A stretch of 56,702 bases of DNA from Enterobacteria phage 9g. This document shows, one piece after another, positions 19,422-52,372 of this stretch. Position 1 is the first letter of the stretch. Every line of letters starts with the position of its first letter. The stretch is taken from the sequence record NC_024146.1; one strand, written 5' to 3'. The notes beneath the pieces are model-generated. The model saw only the letters and a program-made list of their open reading frames with translations, did no database searches and had not been told where the DNA came from. The translations under genes and the position numbers were made by a program.

Positions 19422-19652
19422 ATGACTCACCAAGATCTTATAAAAAGAAACATCAGAACTGCAATGAACAAATCAGAGGAATTTTCACACAACTGTACTG
19501 ATGGTACTCATAAAATTAGATACGAATATATGGGATCCTCAACTGTGGTTACATTTGAGAAAGATGAGTATCACGTTGGAGATTTTTCAACACCAGATTA
19601 TGACGAGATGTTTGAATACGTTGTATGTGGGTTCTTAGAGTTGCACGAATAA
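19422..19652 (+). CDS. Hypothetical protein (lone plus-strand gene within the minus-strand block)
   Basis: 76 aa. Own promoter-like element, strong SD (GGAGGA), and a terminator directly downstream. Confidence 0.6.
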   Translation: MTHQDLIKRNIRTAMNKSEEFSHNCTDGTHKIRYEYMGSSTVVTFEKDEYHVGDFSTPDYDEMFEYVVCGFLELHE

Positions 19653-19656
19653 TATA

Positions 19657-19686
19657 ATGGGCGCATATAGCGCCCATTTTTTTTAT
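19657..19686. terminator. Bidirectional Rho-independent terminator
   Basis: atgggcgc(19657-19664) / gcgcccat(19670-19677), 8-bp stem, 5-nt loop, then T9 on the plus strand; A/T-rich flank on the other side. Lies between convergent genes 19422..19652 (+) and 19683..22058 (-). Confidence 0.6.
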
Positions 19687-22058
19687 AGCTTAATAATCTT
19701 CTCCATGCGTTCGATATCCACTAAATAACACTTCATCCTCGGTGGTACAAAATCAGGACCGAATAAACTTGAGAAGTCCATAGGCCTCATTTCAGCAAGA
19801 ACTTCCATAGACATCAGACCATAAATTGTATTGTCTATGACCTGCAATATGTTGTCGTTTCTTGTCTGCTTGAACGCTTTAAATTGCCTACAATAAGTAC
19901 ATAAATCACTCCGTGTAACTATAAACGAGTCCTTAAACATTGGGAATTTATCATACACATAAGCCTTCACTTCTCCGTCCAAGAATCTTTTTATAGTCGC
20001 GAGCATTATCTTCTCACGGCTTGTACTATCTGTAGACCCAATTTGCCCACTGTTACGCTTCTCTAAGAAACGCTCGTTACCCTGATCGATAAATGACTCA
20101 GCCCAACGATAATGTTCCATAGTAACAACGGGTCGTTCACTGTTATCCGCAACAGCAAGAAGAGAAGCTATACGCAATACCTTCAACGCCTTCCTTGTGT
20201 ACATCTGACGAATTACTTCGTCTTGCACCTGCTCACCATCGTTGCCGCTGTTCAGGAACTTCGCAACAACATTATCAAGATTATCAAACGCTTCGTGTAC
20301 CTCTGCTTCCATTTCAACATAACACGGAGCAGTCCCTGACATAATACGCACAGCTTGTTTATAGATAGCTCCAATAGTGCGCAGAATTGCTTCTGGATAT
20401 TCCAGGAGCATACTCTTATTCATCAACGGGCGGTTAGCTGTACATTCCCATGCGATAATACGGGACATGAAGCCACTAGACATCATACGGTCATCCACGT
20501 TCCCGTAAAATTCATCTGGTGTTGTTTCACCTGCAAAACTATACGCCTTAACCTTACCACCAGCAGTCGTATTATCTTTACTAGAGTGCTTTGAACCACC
20601 AGAGAAAGCATAGAAATGCCCCTTGTCATAAAGGGAAAGCATTTCATCCATAATGTCTTTAGCTTTACCAACTTCCATCTTACCGTTACGGAAAAACGCA
20701 CCGACTTCAGTCTTATAGTTGATGGATGAGCCACAAGACATAACGGACGTATCCATTATGACGTCCTTGCGCAATGCAGCATCAGACGCATAGGTACTTG
20801 TATCTAGGACACGTTCAATACCAAATATCTGCTGACCGTCTTGACCGCCATAATTGGATACTTGAGAAAGAATAGTTTCAATGTTAGAGCGAAACGCTTC
20901 TTTACCAATACCAGAACGTGCAATTAATACAAAGTAGTTATTCAAACCACTTCGTGTGACTGTGTTCCACGCCTTACCGCACATACCACTAAATAAAGCA
21001 AGAGCAGACAGAATACTAATGTCTTTAATAGGCAACAAGCTCGCTTTATACATATTACGCGCAACCTCGCCCATAAAGCCCGGAGGCCAAGCCAAACCGT
21101 CTGCCTGCTCTTCAGTGTAATTACCATCTGTGGTCAACACTTCTTCAGGTGGGCGTTCTGGTGTAGTTGCTTGACGTAGTTTTTCCGTGCGCTCTATAGC
21201 TGCATTAACGTTATTCTGAACTATCTGCATAAGTCCCATAGATTTAACATGGGCATCATAACGATAGTTGCGAATCATTCTATCCAGGTGATACGGACGT
21301 TTAATTTTTTCACCAGGCATACGACGGGAATCATCATAACGACTACTCATTGGTGAATACATGAATAGACGTCTTACCTGGAAATTGTACTTACTCTTAA
21401 AGCAAAGAAAGTCAATTAATGCAAATTCTGCTTCAGACTGAGAAGGGAAACAACGTTCGCCGATAGAAGTATCAACTTCTTCAGCTCTCCAACGACCTTC
21501 CCATAGCTGCTTAAACAATGTTCCGTTTTCTTGTTCGCACAGCTGGATATAGACATCCTGGTCTTCCATTGCATATGGGTCGTTACTAAAATCTTCTTCA
21601 GTAAGTTCCAGCATTTGGAAGCCATCAGACTCATTAATCTCACTCATCTCAGACATAAGTTGATGAATGAGATTAGCGATATACCCTTCGCTTTCACTGC
21701 CTGGAGCACCAGACACAATACGCGGAGTAATATCCCAGTGATCGCCTGTACAGATAATAAAACGATACTGCGAATACACTTCCACACCATCACGGCGCTT
21801 ACCAGCCTGAGGGATGGAATAAATCCATGTATGCAACCCATCACCACTTCTGGAAATTTCCGTATAGCTATGGAACGATTCAACAATCTTCTTATATCGC
21901 TCACCAGCAACTTTCTTTTCCATTTCAGACATGGTATCTTTAATGTCCATGTCTATACAACAGAACGGGTCACTTGGAAGTAGATAGAAACCTAAACGCA
22001 AGTTATGGCCAATCTCGTTATAATAACGAACGCAGCGTTCAGCATCTTCAAAAGACAT
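19683..22058 (-). CDS. Putative DNA primase (PrimPol/AEP-type N-terminal domain) with C-terminal NTPase-like region
   Basis: 791 aa. AEP motifs CIDMDIKD (DxD) and SRSGDGLHTWIY (sGxGxH); later LIARSGIGKE (P-loop-like). Confidence 0.6.
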   Translation of the reverse strand: MSFEDAERCVRYYNEIGHNLRLGFYLLPSDPFCCIDMDIKDTMSEMEKKVAGERYKKIVESFHSYTEISRSGDGLHTWIYSIPQAGKRRDGVEVYSQYRFIICTGDHWDITPRIVSGAPGSESEGYIANLIHQLMSEMSEINESDGFQMLELTEEDFSNDPYAMEDQDVYIQLCEQENGTLFKQLWEGRWRAEEVDTSIGERCFPSQSEAEFALIDFLCFKSKYNFQVRRLFMYSPMSSRYDDSRRMPGEKIKRPYHLDRMIRNYRYDAHVKSMGLMQIVQNNVNAAIERTEKLRQATTPERPPEEVLTTDGNYTEEQADGLAWPPGFMGEVARNMYKASLLPIKDISILSALALFSGMCGKAWNTVTRSGLNNYFVLIARSGIGKEAFRSNIETILSQVSNYGGQDGQQIFGIERVLDTSTYASDAALRKDVIMDTSVMSCGSSINYKTEVGAFFRNGKMEVGKAKDIMDEMLSLYDKGHFYAFSGGSKHSSKDNTTAGGKVKAYSFAGETTPDEFYGNVDDRMMSSGFMSRIIAWECTANRPLMNKSMLLEYPEAILRTIGAIYKQAVRIMSGTAPCYVEMEAEVHEAFDNLDNVVAKFLNSGNDGEQVQDEVIRQMYTRKALKVLRIASLLAVADNSERPVVTMEHYRWAESFIDQGNERFLEKRNSGQIGSTDSTSREKIMLATIKRFLDGEVKAYVYDKFPMFKDSFIVTRSDLCTYCRQFKAFKQTRNDNILQVIDNTIYGLMSMEVLAEMRPMDFSSLFGPDFVPPRMKCYLVDIERMEKIIKL

Positions 22059-27387: not shown

Positions 27388-27463
27388 TGTGATTATCTCC
27401 ATGCTGTTCTAGCGGATTGCTAGTGGGAGCCCACTGTTACAATGGGCAACCATTAGCACGCTA

Positions 27464-27769
27464 TCATTGTTGAATAGCTTTCGCTATCATTGTAATAAAG
27501 CAGAACACAGACCACAGACTATTCGCTTGGCATACTGCGCGACCATACATTACGCTATGAGAGCTGACAGTGCCGTCCTCGTTAATGCGAATATACAACG
27601 CGGTGCTGGAATATTTTTCGTTTCCCGGGAGCATTACTAAATACTCGTCAAAATCCCAGTCCCCGGCAACTTTTTCCGCTGTAAGGCCCAACTGGTGCAG
27701 GCGCTTGCCAATAATACGTTTGGTGATCATGGACTGGGACATGGGACGCGGTAAGTAAATACTGGACAT
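27464..27769 (-). CDS. Hypothetical protein (first gene of the minus-strand early cluster)
   Basis: Start moved to the internal ATG at 27769 (AAGGGAGA 8 nt upstream); the ATG at 27886 has no SD. Confidence 0.5.
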   Translation of the reverse strand: MSSIYLPRPMSQSMITKRIIGKRLHQLGLTAEKVAGDWDFDEYLVMLPGNEKYSSTALYIRINEDGTVSSHSVMYGRAVCQANSLWSVFCFITMIAKAIQQ

Positions 27770-33431: not shown

Positions 33432-34998
33432 GGTAGTATGGAAACCACATCCAGGATCTCAGGTACTGGCACTAAGTTGTCCAGCAGATGAGATTTTATA
33501 TCATGGTACTCGTGGCCCTGGAAAGACCGATGCTCAGTTGATGCGTTTTCGTCGTTATGTTGGCATGGGGTATGGTAAACACTGGCGCGGTATCATTTTT
33601 GACCGAGAATACAAAAACTTAGATGACTTAGTTGCAAAGTCACAGCGTTGGTTTCCTGAATTTAATGATGGTTGTAAATTCTTATCTTCCAAGTCAGATT
33701 ATAAATGGGTATGGCCTAGCGGCGAAGAACTAATGTTCCGTGTTGCTAAAAAACCTAAGGATTACTGGCTGTACCACGGTCAGGAATTTCCATTTATTGG
33801 ATGGAACGAATTAACTAAATATCCTGATAGTGGGCTTTATGAAGCAATGAAGTCCTGTAACCGTACATCCTTTGTTGCAGAAGAAAACCCAATAATTATT
33901 GACGGTGATGTGTATCAGAGAACTGGGCGTCTTGTGCTTGTTCAACCGGACCATGAATACGCAATGCAGTTCATACTACCACCTTTGCCGTTGCAGATCT
34001 TTTCTACGACTAACCCATTTGGGGTTGGACATAACTGGGTCAAGAAATATTTTATTAACTCTTGCCCTCTTGGGTCCATGAAGAAGGAAGTAACAAACGT
34101 CTTCAACCCTCGTACACAGAAACGGGAAGACGTAGTTCGAACTCGCTGCCATATATTTGGTTCGTATCGAGAGAACCGCAACTTGACACCTGAGTATGTT
34201 GCGCAGCTTGTAAACATTGACGATCCTAACCTCCGTATGGCATGGCTCGGTGGTAGCTGGGATATTACGTCAGGCGGAATGTTCGACGACCTGTGGCGTC
34301 AGAATATACATGTGGTCAAGCCATTCCCAATACCTCACTCCTGGAGAATTGATAGATCATTTGACTGGGGCTCAAGTAAACCGTTTTCTGTTGGTTGGTG
34401 GGCAAGAAGTGATGGTAGTGATATCGTGTATCCAAATGGGCGTCGTGTACGAACAGTACGAGGTGACTTATTTAGGATCATGGAGTGGTATGGTACTAAC
34501 GGGAAACCGAACGAAGGTTTAAGATTATTGGATTCTGAAATTGCTCGTGGTATCATCGTCAGGGAAATTGAAGCTGGTTTATACGGTCGCGTAGTTCCAG
34601 GCCCTGCTGATAACAGCATTTGGGACGTTAAGGACGGTAACAGTACCGCAGCAACAATGTCTAAACCAATAACTATCAATGGTCGGTCTTATCCTGGTGT
34701 ACAGTGGATTCGAAGTGATAAATCCCCTGGATCTCGTAAAGCAGGTTGGAAACGAATGCGGGAATATTTAGCTGCTTCAATTCCGGATCCTAAGGTTGCC
34801 GCTTTACGTGAAAGACCTTCTATGTTTATTTTTGATAACTGTCATCACTTTATAGATCTTGTTCCAACTCTTGCTAGAGACGAAGATGATCTTGATGATG
34901 TCGATACTGATTCTGAAGACCACATTGCTGACGAAGCTCGTTATCGCGTAGCTAACGAAGCACGTGGTGGTAGTATCGGTAAGACTGTTGGGACATAA
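33400..34998 (+). CDS. Terminase large subunit
   Basis: 532 aa. Walker A GTRGPGKT near the N-terminus; C-terminal nuclease-like acidic residues; AAGAGG upstream. Confidence 0.9.
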   Translation: MDSMIQTPSTKVVWKPHPGSQVLALSCPADEILYHGTRGPGKTDAQLMRFRRYVGMGYGKHWRGIIFDREYKNLDDLVAKSQRWFPEFNDGCKFLSSKSDYKWVWPSGEELMFRVAKKPKDYWLYHGQEFPFIGWNELTKYPDSGLYEAMKSCNRTSFVAEENPIIIDGDVYQRTGRLVLVQPDHEYAMQFILPPLPLQIFSTTNPFGVGHNWVKKYFINSCPLGSMKKEVTNVFNPRTQKREDVVRTRCHIFGSYRENRNLTPEYVAQLVNIDDPNLRMAWLGGSWDITSGGMFDDLWRQNIHVVKPFPIPHSWRIDRSFDWGSSKPFSVGWWARSDGSDIVYPNGRRVRTVRGDLFRIMEWYGTNGKPNEGLRLLDSEIARGIIVREIEAGLYGRVVPGPADNSIWDVKDGNSTAATMSKPITINGRSYPGVQWIRSDKSPGSRKAGWKRMREYLAASIPDPKVAALRERPSMFIFDNCHHFIDLVPTLARDEDDLDDVDTDSEDHIADEARYRVANEARGGSIGKTVGT

Positions 34999-41251: not shown

Positions 41252-41670
41252 TGGCTAAGAAGAGCTTCCGTGATCAGTTTACCAGTGCTCAATTAAGAGC
41301 CATGCAAAAAGCCGCAGGTGAGGTAAAACAAAGACTTTATGGCTTCGTTAGTGCTGTTGTTGATGACACTCCTGTTAAGGACGGTGGATTACGCGGAAGT
41401 TGGCAGATACAAAAATCACCCGACCTTATTGAGGACAATCTACCGGAAGACCCGTCCGGAGCTGCTACGAAACAAAGATTGTTTACTAAAATAAGGTATC
41501 TCCCAATCCATCAAGATTGGGATATTTATTTTGGTAACGGTAAGCCTTATGCTCAGAAGATTGAATATGAAGGTTACAGTAAGCAGGCGCCTAACGGGAT
41601 GCTGCGTAAGAACATCGCAAGAGGTGGACAAGCATTCAGTGGATTTAAACTTGGGAGCTTTGATAAATGA
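41251..41670 (+). CDS. Putative head-tail joining/tail completion protein (by position)
   Basis: 139 aa, start overlaps the upstream stop (TAATG). Confidence 0.5.
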   Translation: MAKKSFRDQFTSAQLRAMQKAAGEVKQRLYGFVSAVVDDTPVKDGGLRGSWQIQKSPDLIEDNLPEDPSGAATKQRLFTKIRYLPIHQDWDIYFGNGKPYAQKIEYEGYSKQAPNGMLRKNIARGGQAFSGFKLGSFDK

Positions 41671-42134
41671 TCCCGTATCCGTTTCATTGGGTAGAAGATA
41701 CCCTGAAATCACACTTAGTGAATAACTATGCTGAAATGTCACACGCTATGGCGTGGAAGAACTTGACATTTGATGCCAGCGGCTTTAAAGTGTGGTTAAA
41801 GATTATCAATACCCCATCCAGCGAAGACCCTGTAACGTTAGGCCCTTATGGCGATAATGAAATGCGTGGGTTTTTACAGATTGGTATATATTCACAGTTG
41901 AATATCGGTATTGAAGAATCTAACGCTGTTCTTGGGCATGTGAGTAAAATCTTTAGTGTACCAAGACAGCTCCAGGCACCGGACGGCTGCATGTTAAGAC
42001 TGACAAGAAAGACGTTTTCTCAAGGTGGGCAGACGTCAATTGCAGACTTCACTCGCGGTGGTGTTGAAGGTGTTTGGGATGCTCAATATGTAACAATCTA
42101 CTGGCTCGCACGTGAGCCTAAACAGAGGATATAA
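41667..42134 (+). CDS. Putative tail terminator/completion protein (by position)
   Basis: 155 aa, start overlaps the upstream stop (ATGA). Confidence 0.5.
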   Translation: MIPYPFHWVEDTLKSHLVNNYAEMSHAMAWKNLTFDASGFKVWLKIINTPSSEDPVTLGPYGDNEMRGFLQIGIYSQLNIGIEESNAVLGHVSKIFSVPRQLQAPDGCMLRLTRKTFSQGGQTSIADFTRGGVEGVWDAQYVTIYWLAREPKQRI

Positions 42135-42136
42135 CG

Positions 42137-43318
42137 ATGGCTGAAGGTTCACGTTATAGTAGCTATTACATCAAAGAACAGACCTCCGGTGTCACTCCGT
42201 CTAGCGGAACTCTGAAGGTCTTTCGTGCTACTAAATCGGGTCTTGATATTAAAGTCGCTACTCTGCAATCTGAAGAAATTCGAGATGACGCGGAAGTGGC
42301 GGATTTCCGTCTTGGTGCTCGACACGTAGAAGGTACAGCAACGGGTGAACTGTCTTATGAGACATTTGATGACCTGTTGGGTGGTGCGTTACGTGGTACG
42401 TTTGCGGACGAAGTGTTAACCGCAGGCATCGAGCGCCAATCCTTTACTTTTATCGACTATAACGCAGATATTGCGGACTTCCCGTATACCATCTATCGCG
42501 GTTGTGAAGTTAACAGTCTTGCAATTACTGTAAGTGCTGAAGCTATCACCGGCGTGGAATTCGGTATTGTTGGTCGTACAATGGAACAAGCTGCTGCCCT
42601 GCCGTCTGGTCTAAGTAAAGGTACTCGTACGACTACATCACCTATGGACGGCTTCTCTGGTAAGCTGGCTATGGGCGATGTGTCCGTTGATGTTATTACT
42701 GAGATGGCTATTAACCTTGAGAACGGCATCGAGCCTCGCTTCGTTGTTGGTTCCAAGTTCTCTATCAAGCCAAGTTCTAAACGTCGTCAGATTAGTGGTA
42801 CACTAACCGCCTACTACGAAGATAATAAACTGCGTAGTAAATTCCTGAACGAACAGGAAAGTGACCTGACTATCGACATCCTGGACGGAACTACTGGTGC
42901 CGGTTATCGCTTCAGTATGCCTCGTATCAAGATTACGGAAGCTCCGCGTCCGATCGATGGTGAAGGCGATATCATGCTGAACATGAGTTATACTGGTCTG
43001 CTGGATCAGGGAGAAGGTTACAGCATTCGTATTACCAAACTTCCTCCGATGTCTTTCACGACCGATCTTACCGCAGACAAGACTATCACTAAAGGACAAA
43101 CCTTAACCCTTTCAGTTGTGGTCAAAGGCGGTGAAGAACCTTATACCTATGTGTGGAAGAAAGGTGGTGTTGTTATTCCGGAAGCTAAACAAGCGACATA
43201 CACTAAATCTAACGCACAAGAAGCGGATGCCGGTCAGTATGTATGTGAAGTAACAGATTCACATGGTCGTACTATACCGAGCACATCTTGCCTTGTTGCT
43301 GTTAATCCTGGTGAGTAA
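42137..43318 (+). CDS. Major tail protein with C-terminal Ig-like domain
   Basis: 393 aa, AGAGGA upstream. C-terminal ~90 aa (TKGQTLTLSVVVKGGEEPYTYVWKKGGVVI...AGQYVCEVTDSHG) look like a Big_2/Ig-like fold; followed by a terminator. Confidence 0.7.
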   Translation: MAEGSRYSSYYIKEQTSGVTPSSGTLKVFRATKSGLDIKVATLQSEEIRDDAEVADFRLGARHVEGTATGELSYETFDDLLGGALRGTFADEVLTAGIERQSFTFIDYNADIADFPYTIYRGCEVNSLAITVSAEAITGVEFGIVGRTMEQAAALPSGLSKGTRTTTSPMDGFSGKLAMGDVSVDVITEMAINLENGIEPRFVVGSKFSIKPSSKRRQISGTLTAYYEDNKLRSKFLNEQESDLTIDILDGTTGAGYRFSMPRIKITEAPRPIDGEGDIMLNMSYTGLLDQGEGYSIRITKLPPMSFTTDLTADKTITKGQTLTLSVVVKGGEEPYTYVWKKGGVVIPEAKQATYTKSNAQEADAGQYVCEVTDSHGRTIPSTSCLVAVNPGE

Positions 43319-43322
43319 TTGG

Positions 43323-43346
43323 AACGGGGTGTAAACCCCGTTTTAT
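43323..43346 (+). terminator. Rho-independent terminator after the major tail gene
   Basis: aacgggg(43323-43329) / ccccgtt(43336-43342), then TTTATT. Confidence 0.55.
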
Positions 43347-43358
43347 TAAGGAACGATT

Positions 43359-43787
43359 ATGTCTTCAGAAAACAAACAAGTATCTACTGAAGTTGCAAAG
43401 AAAGCTGTTGGTACATCTTTCCGTGACTTTAACTTGAAAAAGAAATTAGAGAACGCTCCGCTGCTGCATTACCCGCTTGTTTTTCCAGGGCAGGGCGATA
43501 CAGGTCACTGGCTGAAGATTCGCAACCGCCACAGCGAAGAATTTCGTCAAGCGGATTTAAAAGCACAACGTCAGATCAGTGCGCTTGTCGTTGCCAACGG
43601 ATCTTTTGAAAACATTGATAAGGACATGCTCGACGATATCAATATGCGAGCGTTCTGTAAGTTGGTTGCTTCGTGGAGCTTCGAAGAAGAATGCAACGAA
43701 GACAATCTTCTTGAATTCTTTGATAATAACCCGTTTGCGTATGACGACATCAATCGTCTGGCAGCGCAAGATTCCCTTTTTTTCTAA
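43359..43787 (+). CDS. Tail assembly chaperone (gpG-like)
   Basis: 142 aa, immediately upstream of the tape-measure gene; ends ...QDSLFF* at a T_TTT_TTC slippery heptamer. Confidence 0.65.
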   Translation: MSSENKQVSTEVAKKAVGTSFRDFNLKKKLENAPLLHYPLVFPGQGDTGHWLKIRNRHSEEFRQADLKAQRQISALVVANGSFENIDKDMLDDINMRAFCKLVASWSFEEECNEDNLLEFFDNNPFAYDDINRLAAQDSLFF

Positions 43788-44170
43788 GATCCCGCGAAAA
43801 GCTAATTGATCACTTACTGCTCGAATGGCAATTGCACAGTTGCCCGCCGGGCAGTAAGACTCCAACAATTAAACATCTCCAGCACGTTAAAAAAGTCACT
43901 GGTAAGACTCCCTCCTTACTAGCAAAGTACGAATCCAGCTCCGTACCGCACGAACTCAGATACATTTACAAGTTATTTCTTGACTTTTATAATGGTGATA
44001 AATTCAGTTACAGCGAATTTAATGCCTGGCAAGATTATATAGATGTAGAACTTGATTTTAGAGAGCGTGAACTAATTCGGCAGATTTGTCTTGAACGGCA
44101 AGCATTTGATATTAGGCGTCAACAAGAACTTATGCAACACGCTCAAACCAATAATAAAGGAGGTAAATAA
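43359..44170 (+). CDS. Predicted gpGT-like frameshift fusion product (-1 shift at 43778-43784)
   Basis: The -1 frame continues ...FLRSREKLIDHLLLEWQLHSCPPGSKTP... through ORF 43832..44170 without a stop; matches the conserved G/GT arrangement upstream of tape-measure genes. Confidence 0.5.
43778..43784 (+). other. Candidate -1 programmed ribosomal frameshift site (T_TTT_TTC)
   Basis: Canonical X_XXY_YYZ heptamer one codon before the gpG-like stop. The -1 frame is open from here to 44170, ending at the tape-measure start (TAATG). Confidence 0.55.
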
Positions 44171-47100
44171 TGGCTGATGCAGCTGACATCGTCATTAGAG
44201 TCCGTGCTGAAGGTATTCAGAATGCTGAAACAGCACTGCGACGCTTGCAAGCGGCAGGTGTAAGAGTTGAGACTGTCAGCTCGCGTATGGAGAATGGTTT
44301 TCACCGTGCGGCTACAAGTGCTGACGCATTCCATCACGCCATTAGTGCAATCTATACGGTAATGACTGTAACCACACTGACATCTTACGTCGGTGGGCTT
44401 GCTAAGTTATCGGATGCGTGGCTGGACGTTACTAACAAACTGGCTAACGCCAACTCTGCAAACGAGCAGATGGTTGATATTCAAGAGCGAGTGTTTGGTA
44501 TTGCTCAAAGAACTCGTACGAGCCTGGAAGCTACGTCAACTCTTTATGCTCGTATGGAACGTTCACTGAACCAGTACGGTGTGACTGGTAGACAGGTTGC
44601 TCAGATCACTGAAACAATTAACAAGGCAATGATTGTTTCTGGTGCAACCACTGCGGAATCTACTGCTGCTATTATCCAGTTCTCACAGGGTCTGCAATCT
44701 GGTGTGTTACGTGGGGATGAATTCCGTTCTGTAATGGAACAAGCTCCTCGTCTTGGTAAGATGATTGCAGATGGTCTTGGTGTTGGTACTGCTGGTCTAC
44801 GTCAGATGGCTAACACTGGACAATTAACCGCTGATGTTGTTATTAACTCCATTTCTAAAGCTGCATCAACTATTGACGATGAGTTTAATCGTACAATACC
44901 AACGTTCTCTCAGCGAATGGAGATTGCGAATAACAACTTAATTAAATTCGCGGGAACGTCAACCTCGGTACAAACTGTGGTCAATTCAATGGGTGCTGTC
45001 ATTGAAACTGCTACAGACCACCTCACCTTGCTGTCTAATACCGCAATCGGTGTTGCTGCTATTGTTGGCGGTCGAATGATTACCGCCCTGGCCGCACAAA
45101 TTGCAGCATTCATAAAGCTCAACGCGATACAAGCAAGTAGCTCGGCCATAAATATCAAGACCATTGATGGTATCACAAGATCCGCAGTAGCTCGATATAA
45201 TGAAGCACAAGCAACGTTAGCACAGGTTGCAGCCGAGCGCACCAAGATTCAGGCGGCATTGCAAGCCGATCAAACGTATTATAAAGGTATAGCGACACTC
45301 AACGCATACATGCAGAATACGCGGCAGGTACGCGAAGCTACGGAAGCGGTTGCTATTGCCCAGACTACCATGCAGGCACGTATGGCTGCCGCAACTGTAG
45401 CGTCCCGTGTGCTTACTGTCACCATGACAGGCCTGCGGACGGTAATGGGCTTGATGGGTGGACCTGTAGGTGTGGTCACATTGGCTGCTGCCGCATGGTT
45501 CATGTGGAGTCAAAACAGTAAACAAGCTGTCCAGGATGCACAGAACCTTGCTTCCTCTCAAGAAGATTTAAAGAACAAGTTAAAAGAAACAACTCTTGAA
45601 CAACAACGAGCTCTTAGTGTTCAGTTGCAACGTGCCGCTATTACGTTGGACGAACAGATTGCCTCTGAAAACAAGGAGTTGGCTGAATTAAAGAACCGTC
45701 TCAGCACAGTAACGCGCTATCAAGCTGAAGCAACTGAAGGAACAAGCGAGTATAACCGACTCACTAAAGACCGTAAGGAATTAGAAGGTGATGTTGCTAT
45801 CAAAATTGGTGAAATATCCACTCTTGAGCAAAAAGCACAACAGATTAAATCTAACTTAACGACTGTACTGAACAATTTAACTGCTGCTGTAATGGGTCAT
45901 ACTGATGCACTCAAAGCAGAAAACGAGCAGTTATCTATTAATATCAGTTCTGCTGCCGGTCGTTCGCAGGAGCTAGTTAGTGCAATCCAAGCTCAGAATA
46001 ATGAGTTAGATGTTGCTCAATTGAAGATGTCTGGTCATGCACGACAAGCGAACATCTTAAGAGATGCTCAGACAGCTCTTGGTAAGAAGTATAAAGAAAA
46101 CGAATCATTCATCAAGAGCTATATTAGCGGTCATGCTGACGCAACTGCTGTATTAACGGATGAGCAACGAGGACTGGTTGAATTTATCAACTTGTCTGGA
46201 AAGAACTATGACGCTCAGAAGAAGATCCATGAACAGCAAGAAAAACAACGTCAGAGTAAGAAAGACAATAAAGCTGCCATACGCTATGCTGAACAATGGG
46301 ATAAAGCATATGAACGCGTAGAAGCGCGTGGTGCTACTGGTTTACAGCGTCTTAACTTACAGCAAGAAGCTGAAGTTCGTGCCATTCGTAATAAAGCTGA
46401 ACGAGCTAAAGCATCTGAAGAAGAATTACAGAACGCGTTACTGGCTATCCAACGTAAGTATGATCTGAAACGTGCAGAACTGGCAGAGCAGTACAAGCCA
46501 GGCGTTGCAATGGTGCGTGCGTACAAAGAAGCCCAACAAGAAATAAATCAGTTGCTTGAAGCTGGTTTATTGACAGAGCAACAGGCATATACTGCTAGAT
46601 TGAATTTGCAGGCGGATTATTATACAAAACGTGCGCAGATGCAATCTGAATTGAACCCTGCTGGACAAGCTGCTGATCAAGAAGCTGCTGAACTTGCAAC
46701 ACTTAAATCCCAGTATGAAACAGCGATTGAATTAGCTGCTGGCAAAGAAGAGCAACTAACCGCTATCAAAGAGAACTATGAGCGCATACGACACGACATT
46801 CAGTTGAAGTACGCTCAGAAGCAGATGCTCGCACAGAACCAGACGGCAATGGCTTACATTGAAAGTCTGAGCTCTATGGCTGGGTCAATGACCACAATTA
46901 TGGCGGCTGCTGGTGATGACGCTAGTGGTGCTTACAGGGTTATGTTCGCACTGTCTAAATCGTTCAGTATTGCTCAGTCGATGTTAAGTATTACCACCGC
47001 ACTATCGCAGGTGTTAGCAGATCCGACAGCATTGACACCGATGCAAAAGATGGCCAACTATGCAACTATTGCGGCCGCTGGTGCTAACATTATTTCGACA

Positions 47101-52000: not shown

Positions 52001-52107
52001 CAAACGTGACAGTTCGTATTAAAGTGTCCGCTCAAAATGGCAGGGGTGCGTCCATTTCTTCTCCTACTATCATAGTATCACACGGATCTGGATCATTCAC
52101 AGGTTAA
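49018..52107 (+). CDS. Tail tip/host specificity protein (lambda gpJ-like) with N-terminal gpI-like hydrophobic Gly/Ala-rich segment
   Basis: 1029 aa. YYWYVRAINAFGSSAFVEV and KYVAGIQLGMEGSGG...NNFAIYNP resemble lambda J (YYFYIRSVNTVGKSAFVEA; HYVAGIGLSMED...NRIAFIDP) as remembered. N-terminus begins MPPAIIGAVVAIGAAAGAAAGIL. Confidence 0.85.
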   Translation: MPPAIIGAVVAIGAAAGAAAGILPATAALVIGIAASAAGALLTKTQSFNFDSYTAQSERKQVIRAAAASRTVIYGTTVSSGVLVFAEEEPGEQDTNKHGENHEKLTLVLALAGHPLTGVGQVWLGDDAIETFGDKAKCIIHNNPTTVSQDMLNRCPSWKRDMIGKGICWMQLNLVFDSEKFPSGLPNVKCLKKGRKVLDPRTGNMVFSNNAALVILDYLRVYLKRSDDAILWDQFKEAANICDESVKNADNTYEPRYTINGEFDIDEAPSKILEDMLDACGGELTYIGGKHGILVGAYYGPPELTLDTSCIAGDIKITPETAFKERTNTITGTYIDPLQNYQEADFPPVSVAEWIQQDGQEITQDVDYRFVTSPYQAQRLSNLTLKRKRIGRSIEIPCNMRGYRFRPGMYVYVDIPNIGMNKVEMRVIKWQFDPKGGVTVTVRQDFPALWDDAIGKPVERPDLVDLPTGGAMQPQNLQYEVLQISDVVQGVLSWQNIMAVAYNNVVIKKDGTTVLTVQVPGQSTRITGLIRGAYTAHVKAVAYTGATSPEAYLEFNIQAPSAPTSVEVTQGYFAVTLKPKSADLANVSTQYDFWTSGETRLPSTAVDVVERQATRAGMGTTWTSEGLLNDHTYYWYVRAINAFGSSAFVEVAARCFTDAAGLIPQIDTEFKGTNTYKELMAEIGSVSDGVKSYVDDQIETSEGRLTQTIDTVQQSVVLVDGKVQQQGVTINEQGQLIDAQGKLIQTNGQQINVVKATVQEVSKSVVDLEGNVNAQWGAKIQVDNKGQKYVAGIQLGMEGSGGAIQSYFMVNANNFAIYNPTDSTADLAFAVKNGQVFMKATFIENGSIDNAKIGNYIQSNNYVAGSAGWKLNKAGDAEFNNVTVRGVVYASGGRFTGEIQATSGKFKGTVEAQSFIGDIANMHTGTNVSRTNDGSLEKVMTYTDSSSSGHARHVCVIANVKGNGAGIININGSESGSSVQDTERLIMHSAVVTGPNVTVRIKVSAQNGRGASISSPTIIVSHGSGSFTG

Positions 52108-52110
52108 ACT

Positions 52111-52134
52111 ATTAACCCCTCGAAAGAGGGGTTA
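52111..52134. terminator. Perfect 10-bp palindromic hairpin between convergent genes
   Basis: ttaacccctc GAAA gaggggttaa; sits between the J-like gene stop (52107) and the minus-strand lipoprotein stop (52139). Confidence 0.5.
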
Positions 52135-52138
52135 ATGT

Positions 52139-52372
52139 TTAGTAGTCTATAACACAGTTTGAAGGGCTCCCAATTCTTCGGTATTCGTGAGCAATCTCCT
52201 GGCACCATTGCCCCGTCATTGGGAGCTTTTCGGTATCGTAAATTAAAGAACCGTTATCGTCCCGATCCAATGGTTTTGGGATAACGCCGGAATTCGGTTT
52301 ACCGGTATCTAAGCCATTACCACATGCGGTGAGGGATAAACAAAATGTGAGCATAATCAGAGCGCGTTTCAT
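52139..52372 (-). CDS. Small lipoprotein, candidate Llp/Cor-like superinfection-exclusion factor
   Basis: 77 aa. Signal peptide and lipobox [17 protein letters not shown]; AAGGAG 6 nt upstream; the only minus-strand gene in the structural block, between tip and fibre genes. Confidence 0.65.

Follow-up and report, generated by a model that had tools for sequence, protein, structure and literature searches.

The window analysed here is the whole 56,702 bp stretch of Enterobacteria phage 9g in sequence record NC_024146.1 (GC content 43.9%), which comes from a Nonagvirus (9g-like, Queuovirinae) siphophage, and the element in question is the overlapping pair of tail assembly chaperone reading frames, G and T, that lies between its major tail tube and tape measure genes. 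By nucleotide match the interval 43300–44250 is 94–99% identical to 16 phage records, all of them Nonagvirus or 9g-like and including SE1, JenK1, JenP1/2, HdK1, FritzHoffmann and ESCO3. The genes of this region are all on the plus strand in the order tail terminator, tube, G, T and tape measure (Table 1). T is in the -1 frame relative to G, and the arrangement suggests that it is expressed through a programmed -1 ribosomal frameshift near the end of G.

The G reading frame ends with the codons GAT TCC CTT TTT TTC TAA, in which the slippery heptamer T_TTT_TTC is in phase with G and draws its T stretch from a run of seven Ts (43777–43783). The G stop codon is the codon immediately after the heptamer, with zero sense codons between. 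The -1 frame is open from 43745 to a TAA that overlaps the ATG of the tape measure gene as TAATG, and it is in the overlap of the two frames (43745–43787) that the heptamer is found. An earlier note on this DNA, made from the sequence alone, had the G frame ending one codon after the heptamer; the heptamer is indeed in phase and at the end of G, although the spacing is exact only if the TAA is counted as that codon. The claim that the -1 frame is open from the heptamer to the tape measure start (43784–44170, ~128 codons) is confirmed by translation, which gives 128 codons. The conceptual GT fusion is 43359..43784 joined to 43784..44170 and is 270 amino acids (aa) long.

Table 1. Features of the 9g tail gene region, in window coordinates.
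Feature	Coordinates	Strand	Basis or remark
Tail terminator gene	41667–42134	+	PF13554
Major tail tube protein gene, 393 aa, with C-terminal Ig-like domain	42137..43318	+	PF18906, E 2.5e-40; Ig_3/Ig_2
Terminator-like GC hairpin with T-rich tail, AACGGGGTGTAAACCCCGTTTTATT, between the tube gene and G	43322..43345	+	Sequence reading
G, short tail assembly chaperone open reading frame (ORF), 142 aa, stop TAA 43785–43787	43359..43787	+	Shine-Dalgarno AAGGAA 5' of ATG
Slippery heptamer T_TTT_TTC, in phase with G; P-site TTT 43779–81, A-site TTC 43782–84	43778..43784	+	Sequence reading
T segment, -1 frame after the slip, 128 codons plus stop TAA 44168–70	43784..44170	+	C-terminal half of the predicted 270-aa GT fusion
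Conserved RNA hairpin in the T-only segment, ~-24.5 kcal/mol, starting 28 nucleotides (nt) 3' of the heptamer	43813..43858	+	Folding and covariation
Tape measure protein gene, 1086 aa	44170..47430	+	PF20155, E 9e-57

The G product matches phrog_569 (E 1.9e-30, profile positions 5–125 of 256) and phrog_313 'tail assembly chaperone' (E 2.3e-14). Its score against PF08748 Phage_TAC_4 is 17.3 bits with a cutoff of 21.1, although 15 of the 16 aligned homologues do match this family. The T part matches PF23812 Phage_TAC_18 (E 9.2e-16, 58.2 bits, cutoff 27) and also aligns to positions 160–249 of phrog_569. The 270-aa fusion aligns to phrog_569 in one stretch, with residues 1–267 on profile positions 5–249 (E 3.7e-42), such that this family must already include full-length fusions, and the GT alignment is gapless across the junction. 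An AlphaFold model of the fusion has a predicted local distance difference test (pLDDT) score of 82.7 and contains a helix (residues 125–160) that spans the junction at 142/143. A search of the fusion sequence against PDB chains gives no meaningful match, and the sole match in the profile search, a designed repeat protein, was set aside. A large protein search with the fusion returns G-length proteins only (151–181 aa, ~52% coverage), with neither a deposited Nonagvirus fusion nor new fusions found.

Searching with the T part by tblastn identifies 133 phage records, in which homology begins at residue 1, right after the heptamer. Loci from ~25 lineages were compared, including 12 Nonagvirus genomes, Klebsiella Kpn2-P2-like, Enterobacter EC151-like and Seuratvirus phages, Pantoea phage Vid5, Providencia phage PSTCR7, two Vibrio phages, Acinetobacter phages DMU1 and JeffCo, Pseudomonas phages PSASB_03, phiH1 and ZQG1, Xanthomonas phages Mallos and DoCa5, Variovorax phage V45iii, and contigs from IMG/VR, ENA and Logan, with six metagenomic lineages; PaMx28 was left out of the analysis. 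In every locus the T homologue is in the -1 frame of the G homologue and the overlap bears an in-phase heptamer, which is retained in homologues down to ~25% identity (T part 25–35%). The heptamer is T_TTT_TTC in most loci and T_TTT_TTA in the EC151-like phages and two Logan contigs, with single variants of T_TTT_TTT inside a T9 run (L031) and A_AAT_TTT (L032). The two frames of Seuratvirus and Vid5 share just 10–13 nt, made up of TTTTTTC and the stop, which leaves the heptamer as the place of the shift. The 9g arrangement recurs in 12 of the 12 Nonagvirus genomes fetched and is therefore not a sequencing indel.

The EC151-like loci L005 and L024–L026 contain two overlapping in-phase heptamers at ~889–898, T_TTT_TTA and T_TTA_AAG (TTTTTTAAAG), in place of T_TTT_TTC plus stop.

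The Phe-Phe encoded by the heptamer is conserved at the protein level and accounts for part of the T-run, and it could be supposed that the run does nothing but encode these two residues at the end of G, next to a -1 ORF that is decaying or non-coding. However, the codon before Phe-Phe varies by lineage (CTT, AAT, AGT, GAT, GCT) and yet has T at its third base in all, and the first Phe codon is TTT in all, including the GC-rich Pseudomonas and Xanthomonas phages. Because of these two features, the nucleotides of the slip site appear more constrained than the protein needs, which indicates selection on nucleotides rather than protein. The T frame is moreover open, conserved and matched by a Pfam chaperone family. 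Both strands of the window were scanned for in-phase XXXYYYZ heptamers that end an open stretch of 80 or more codons, have a 0-frame stop no more than 10 codons on, and lead into a -1 ORF of 100 codons or longer. The scan finds two sites only, the G/T heptamer and one at 34501, and shuffled sequence yields a mean of 0.01 such sites. The comparative data already contradict a chance juxtaposition, to which we give next to no probability.

The 34501 site (G_GGA_AAC) is an artefact, its 0 frame being a 101-aa ORF that is spurious and lies within a genuine gene of 532 aa. Runs of at least seven Ts occur twice in the 56.7 kb, against ~5.6 expected, and there are no runs of at least seven As. The second T-run is a T8 at 19677–84 that is the U-tract of an intergenic terminator; it sits 3' of the hairpin GGGCGCATATAGCGCCC (window positions 19650–19690) in a region without an open frame of at least 60 codons, and has the typical look of an intrinsic terminator.

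The first possible start codon in the -1 frame is a TTG at 43832, located 16 codons 3' of the heptamer. Variation in the first 16 T codons was examined within four lineages (Nonagvirus, Kpn-like, EC151-like and Seuratvirus), and the variable sites are distributed 3:1:16 across codon positions 1:2:3. The variable codons are 17 synonymous versus 1 non-synonymous, whereas in either of the other two frames almost all would be non-synonymous. As judged from these ratios, there is purifying selection in the -1 frame right after the heptamer and ahead of any start codon.

These codons bear directly on whether T might be an independent 112-aa protein translated from TTG 43832 with no recoding at all. 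The ORF 43832..44170 does exist and is annotated as a 'hypothetical protein' in FritzHoffmann, SE1 and other GenBank records, and the codon equivalent to TTG 43832 is ATG in EC151 and Vid5; however, it is CTA or CTG in Seuratvirus and Kpn2-P2, and the annotated T starts of relatives vary between 10 and 85 codons 3' of the heptamer. The TTG lies inside a hairpin stem and is not preceded by a Shine-Dalgarno sequence (upstream cgaatggcaa), whereas AAGGAA precedes G and a strong one, AAAGGAGG, belongs to the tape measure gene. The 16 codons upstream are homologous across genera as well as strongly constrained, and the fusion fits a single PHROG profile end to end. Given the constrained upstream codons, the absence of a Shine-Dalgarno sequence and a start codon that is not conserved, a fusion rather than independent initiation would explain the conservation, and an independently initiated T is very improbable.

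We therefore favor a programmed -1 ribosomal frameshift of the lambda G/GT type at the G/T site, with a probability of roughly 85% on what is a computational analysis of sequence. The proposal of a candidate -1 frameshift on T_TTT_TTC producing a G-T chaperone fusion is supported, as the site has all of the computational hallmarks of a lambda-type G/GT system, and its match to the conserved expression strategy of long-tailed phages is borne out by gene order, family matches, heptamer conservation and the constraint on the -1 frame. Most ribosomes would translate G (43359–43787) and terminate at the TAA abutting the heptamer to give the 142-aa chaperone. A small fraction would slip by -1 with tRNA-Phe on TTT in the P site and on TTC in the A site of 43778–43784; both tRNAs would re-pair with TTT TTT, and decoding would restart at CTA (43784). 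The shifted ribosomes would continue for 128 further codons, to 44170, and produce the 270-aa GT protein with ...AAQDSLFF joined to LRSREK... at the junction. By analogy with lambda, the G parts would coat the tape measure protein and the T domain would recruit the tube protein (42137..43318), its expected binding partner; both products, in a skewed ratio, would be needed for tail assembly.

UUY and all-pyrimidine heptamers are shift-prone in Escherichia coli, and in E. coli reporters frameshifting on U_UUU_UUC reaches 0.89% when the IS911 stimulators are present and 7.6% when the IS3 pseudoknot is (Sharma et al., PMC4066793). Several points nonetheless count against a ribosomal frameshift in 9g. 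Without a stimulator the same heptamer gives 0.12%, or ~2x background (Sharma et al., PMC4066793), so that frameshifting at a lambda-like few per cent would require a stimulator. There is no structure at the canonical spacing of 5–9 nt, the 46 nt segment 43785–43830 folding at -6.6 kcal/mol (z -0.45), which is no better than shuffles. A join is absent from the annotation of all 16 matching Nonagvirus records, and the T7 run could also support RNA polymerase slippage, giving the same protein.

We infer that the slip is ribosomal, and with it an efficiency and a stimulator, which in this clade is likely the stop codon abutting the heptamer; its slowly filled A site would let the P-site tRNA-Phe slip. 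A pairing of the T-run with an A6 run at 43889–94, seen in one fold, was rejected for lack of conservation of the A-run, Seurat having GTT GAG GAA there.

If the slippage were transcriptional, RNA polymerase would add one U on the T7 run in a minority of mRNAs and the GT protein would be identical (...LFFLR...). The homopolymer at 43777–43783, the T9 in one relative (L031) and the weakness of the heptamer alone as a ribosomal shifter (0.12%) are in keeping with this, as is the depletion of UUUUUUU from E. coli genes in all frames, possibly via such slippage (Sharma et al.). However, the run is just T6 in the Seuratvirus, Vid5, Vibrio and Providencia relatives with the arrangement unchanged, and in L032 it is replaced by A_AAT_TTT, a ribosomal heptamer with no homopolymer. 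Nearly all lineages also keep the 3' end of the run in a single codon phase (X_XXY_YYZ), a constraint relevant to tRNA re-pairing and not to RNA polymerase. Efficient slippage by bacterial RNA polymerase usually requires at least 8–9 identical bases (A/T), a length that neither the T7 of the window nor the T6 of many homologues attains. Transcriptional slippage is accordingly an improbable source of the fusion, and a ribosomal slip is preferred.

The T-only segment downstream of the heptamer contains a conserved RNA hairpin composed of an 11-bp outer stem (CUUACUGCUCG/CGGGCAGUAAG), a 3x3 internal loop, a 7-bp inner stem (GGCAAUU/AGUUGCC) and a GCAC loop. Among all 56-nt windows of the plus strand across the whole stretch, it ranks third in stability. 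The segment 43785–43870 that includes it has a folding energy of -29.1 kcal/mol (z -5.06), a stability equalled by 0 of 200 shuffles. When synonymous codons are exchanged so as to keep the T protein, 2 of 300 randomized sequences are as stable as the 9g hairpin and 0 of 300 for each of Seurat, Kpn2-P2 and Vid5; the EC151 hairpin is not significant in this test. No U-tract is located 3' of the hairpin, and an Rfam search of 43300–44300 reveals no family near threshold. The most stable local structure on the plus strand is a different one, at 27409–27464 (-29.3 kcal/mol), situated at the start of a 75-codon open frame.

Covariation was assessed in 21 aligned sequences with the shared outer and apical helices specified by hand, because the register in which the mid-stem pairs differs between lineages, which weakens the RNAalifold consensus (-1.4 kcal/mol for all 21). 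With these helices 78.6% of the cells are paired, as opposed to 21–46% when the 3' partners are slid, and 31 cells are changed on both sides of the hairpin, a number reached by 0 of 500 shuffles. Compensatory changes are present in five of the eight outer-stem pairs, including CG to UA, UA to GC, AU to GC and GC to AU. By this comparative measure, the covarying hairpin 28 nt 3' of the heptamer is real.

The position of the hairpin is bimodal in the family, either 22–35 nt or 0–9 nt after the heptamer. Where the stop codon is 0–6 codons past the heptamer (9g, the other enterobacterial lineages, Vid5 and Vibrio ALK), the hairpin is 22–35 nt away, with the exception of a metagenomic contig (L041, ENA41) whose best, weaker hairpin is at +15 nt. 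Vibrio 1.117 stands outside this distal-hairpin group, with a stop 6 codons after the heptamer yet a near hairpin at +6 nt. In the Pseudomonas, Xanthomonas, Acinetobacter and Variovorax phages the stop is 16–34 codons later and the hairpin is 0–9 nt away (e.g. PSASB_03 at +7, DoCa5 at +6 and JeffCo at +9), a range that covers the canonical spacing for programmed ribosomal frameshifting (PRF).

The 28-nt spacer of 9g is too far for a canonical stimulator, being beyond the range at which the hairpin would touch a ribosome on the heptamer; 28 nt is approximately one ribosome footprint. A stalled leading ribosome is known to stimulate a -1 shift in a trailing ribosome, with an optimum of 9 codons (Smith et al. 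2019, PMC6815119). The frameshift of this clade might be tuned at a distance, with the hairpin either stalling a leading ribosome as a roadblock or controlling the processing or stability of the G versus T-tape measure mRNA, and so setting the G:GT:tape measure ratios; we regard this as unlikely, and a ribosome relay at the hairpin would be weak because only ribosomes that have already shifted reach it. The hairpin could serve as a distal modulator, as an RNA processing or stability element, or as a mask for TTG 43832. The idea that it is one of many structures shielding a poorly translated T segment (e.g. from Rho) was rejected, as the rest of T is less structured than average.

A further sequence between the heptamer and the hairpin, GAAAAG at 43796–43801 (GAA AAG in the T frame), has nearly invariant nucleotides in the Nonagvirus, Kpn-like and EC151-like phages. 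It contains a slippery tetramer, A_AAG, 11 nt 5' of the hairpin, and a second -1 slip there would meet a TAA two codons on. It is probably just conservation of Arg-Glu-Lys, because it is absent from Seuratvirus.

PMC5009743 summarizes the lambda G/GT paradigm (Levin, Hendrix & Casjens 1993; Xu, Hendrix & Duda 2004, 2013, 2014) and the conservation of this strategy among long-tailed phages. Lambda and 9g share an overlapping ORF pair between the major tail and tape measure genes, a -1 shift shortly before the first ORF ends, and an abundant short protein with a rare fusion of common N-terminus whose expected role is in tape measure and tube assembly, all of this at the protein level being predicted for 9g. 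They differ in that G and T of 9g are not detectably similar in sequence to lambda G or T, that the heptamer is T_TTT_TTC rather than G_GGA_AAG, and that 9g has a stop abutting the heptamer and a conserved hairpin 28 nt downstream; lambda G/GT is not known to need a downstream structure. The E/E+E' tail chaperone frameshift of phage P2 uses TTTTTTG (Christie et al. 2002, as cited in PMC3091744) and is similar in placing a -1 shift on a T6N heptamer in a tail chaperone pair, but P2 is a myovirus with unrelated proteins, and PMC3091744 reports no downstream hairpin for P2 or its relatives. The canonical PRF signals of dnaX, IS911 and IS3 likewise pair an X_XXY_YYZ heptamer with a stable, covarying stem-loop downstream, but they place the stem-loop or pseudoknot at 5–9 nt, whereas the 9g spacer is 28 nt (22–35 nt in the clade) and no Shine-Dalgarno-like element is seen upstream of the 9g slip site.

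The closest precedents are true homologues (phrog_569/PF23812) that share the in-phase T_TTT_TTC and the gene order. In phage Seurat the CPT_Seurat13/14 'tape measure chaperone' (KM236243) is annotated as a two-piece coding sequence with 'ribosomal slippage (10236)' at the homologous site, and the stop directly after the heptamer and the distal hairpin are as in 9g, although its T part is 35% identical. Acinetobacter phage DMU1 (MT992243) has 'gpG' and 'frameshift product gpGT' annotated at the homologous site; its T part is ~26–35% identical and it differs in that the 0 frame runs 34 codons beyond the heptamer and the main hairpin stem starts ~5 nt after it. In the Nonagvirus records inspected T is either omitted (ESCO3) or entered as a 'hypothetical protein' from the TTG, the SE1 record labels G a 'tail length tape measure protein', and the papers on Vid5 and EC151 do not mention a frameshift. 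The Nonagvirus site is thus an unannotated member of a well-known recoding system, with the homologous site annotated in a sister genus (Seurat).

Several other features are present in the vicinity and elsewhere in the window. The terminator-like hairpin between the tube gene and G is not called by a simple terminator scan, and 'terminator' is among the features under the match to this region in the HdK1, HdSG1 and SP8 records; a terminator here would reduce expression of G and the downstream tail genes relative to the tube protein. Within the tube gene, at ~43045, Salmonella phage SE1 (L003, NC_042025) has one extra T (CTTCCTTCC versus CTTCC-TCC) before the Ig-like domain, and the SE1 record therefore splits the gene into a 'minor tail protein' and a 'tail protein', whereas the window ORF is intact at 393 aa; the extra T may have arisen by mutation or through an error in sequencing, or it may mark an Ig domain reached by frameshifting. 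Within T, 5' of the tape measure gene, is an 11/12 match to a sigma-70-like promoter (TTTACA-17-TATAAT; 43965–43993) that is retained in the Nonagvirus and Kpn-like sequences only, its TATAAT being largely a consequence of a conserved DFYNG peptide. A terminator-like hairpin, TTAACCCCTCGAAAGAGGGGTTAA, is located at 52085–52140 in a region without an open frame of at least 60 codons. A search of the whole window for tRNA and tmRNA genes found none.

The frameshift itself is textbook, and the conserved, oddly placed hairpin and the two layouts add slight interest. Adding the join would correct an essential tail-assembly gene, the 270-aa GT being missing from all 16 matching Nonagvirus records, in a genus that is used in the BASEL collection and in collections for phage therapy. 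A natural comparison for how the weak U_UUU_UUC is stimulated in bacteria is offered by the homologous site in its two layouts, one with a hairpin at 0–9 nt and the other with an adjacent stop and a hairpin at 22–35 nt. If a hairpin acting at a distance is true, it would be a new kind of accessory signal for phage G/GT frameshifting, and would contrast with the canonical near hairpin of the Pseudomonas, Xanthomonas and Acinetobacter relatives.

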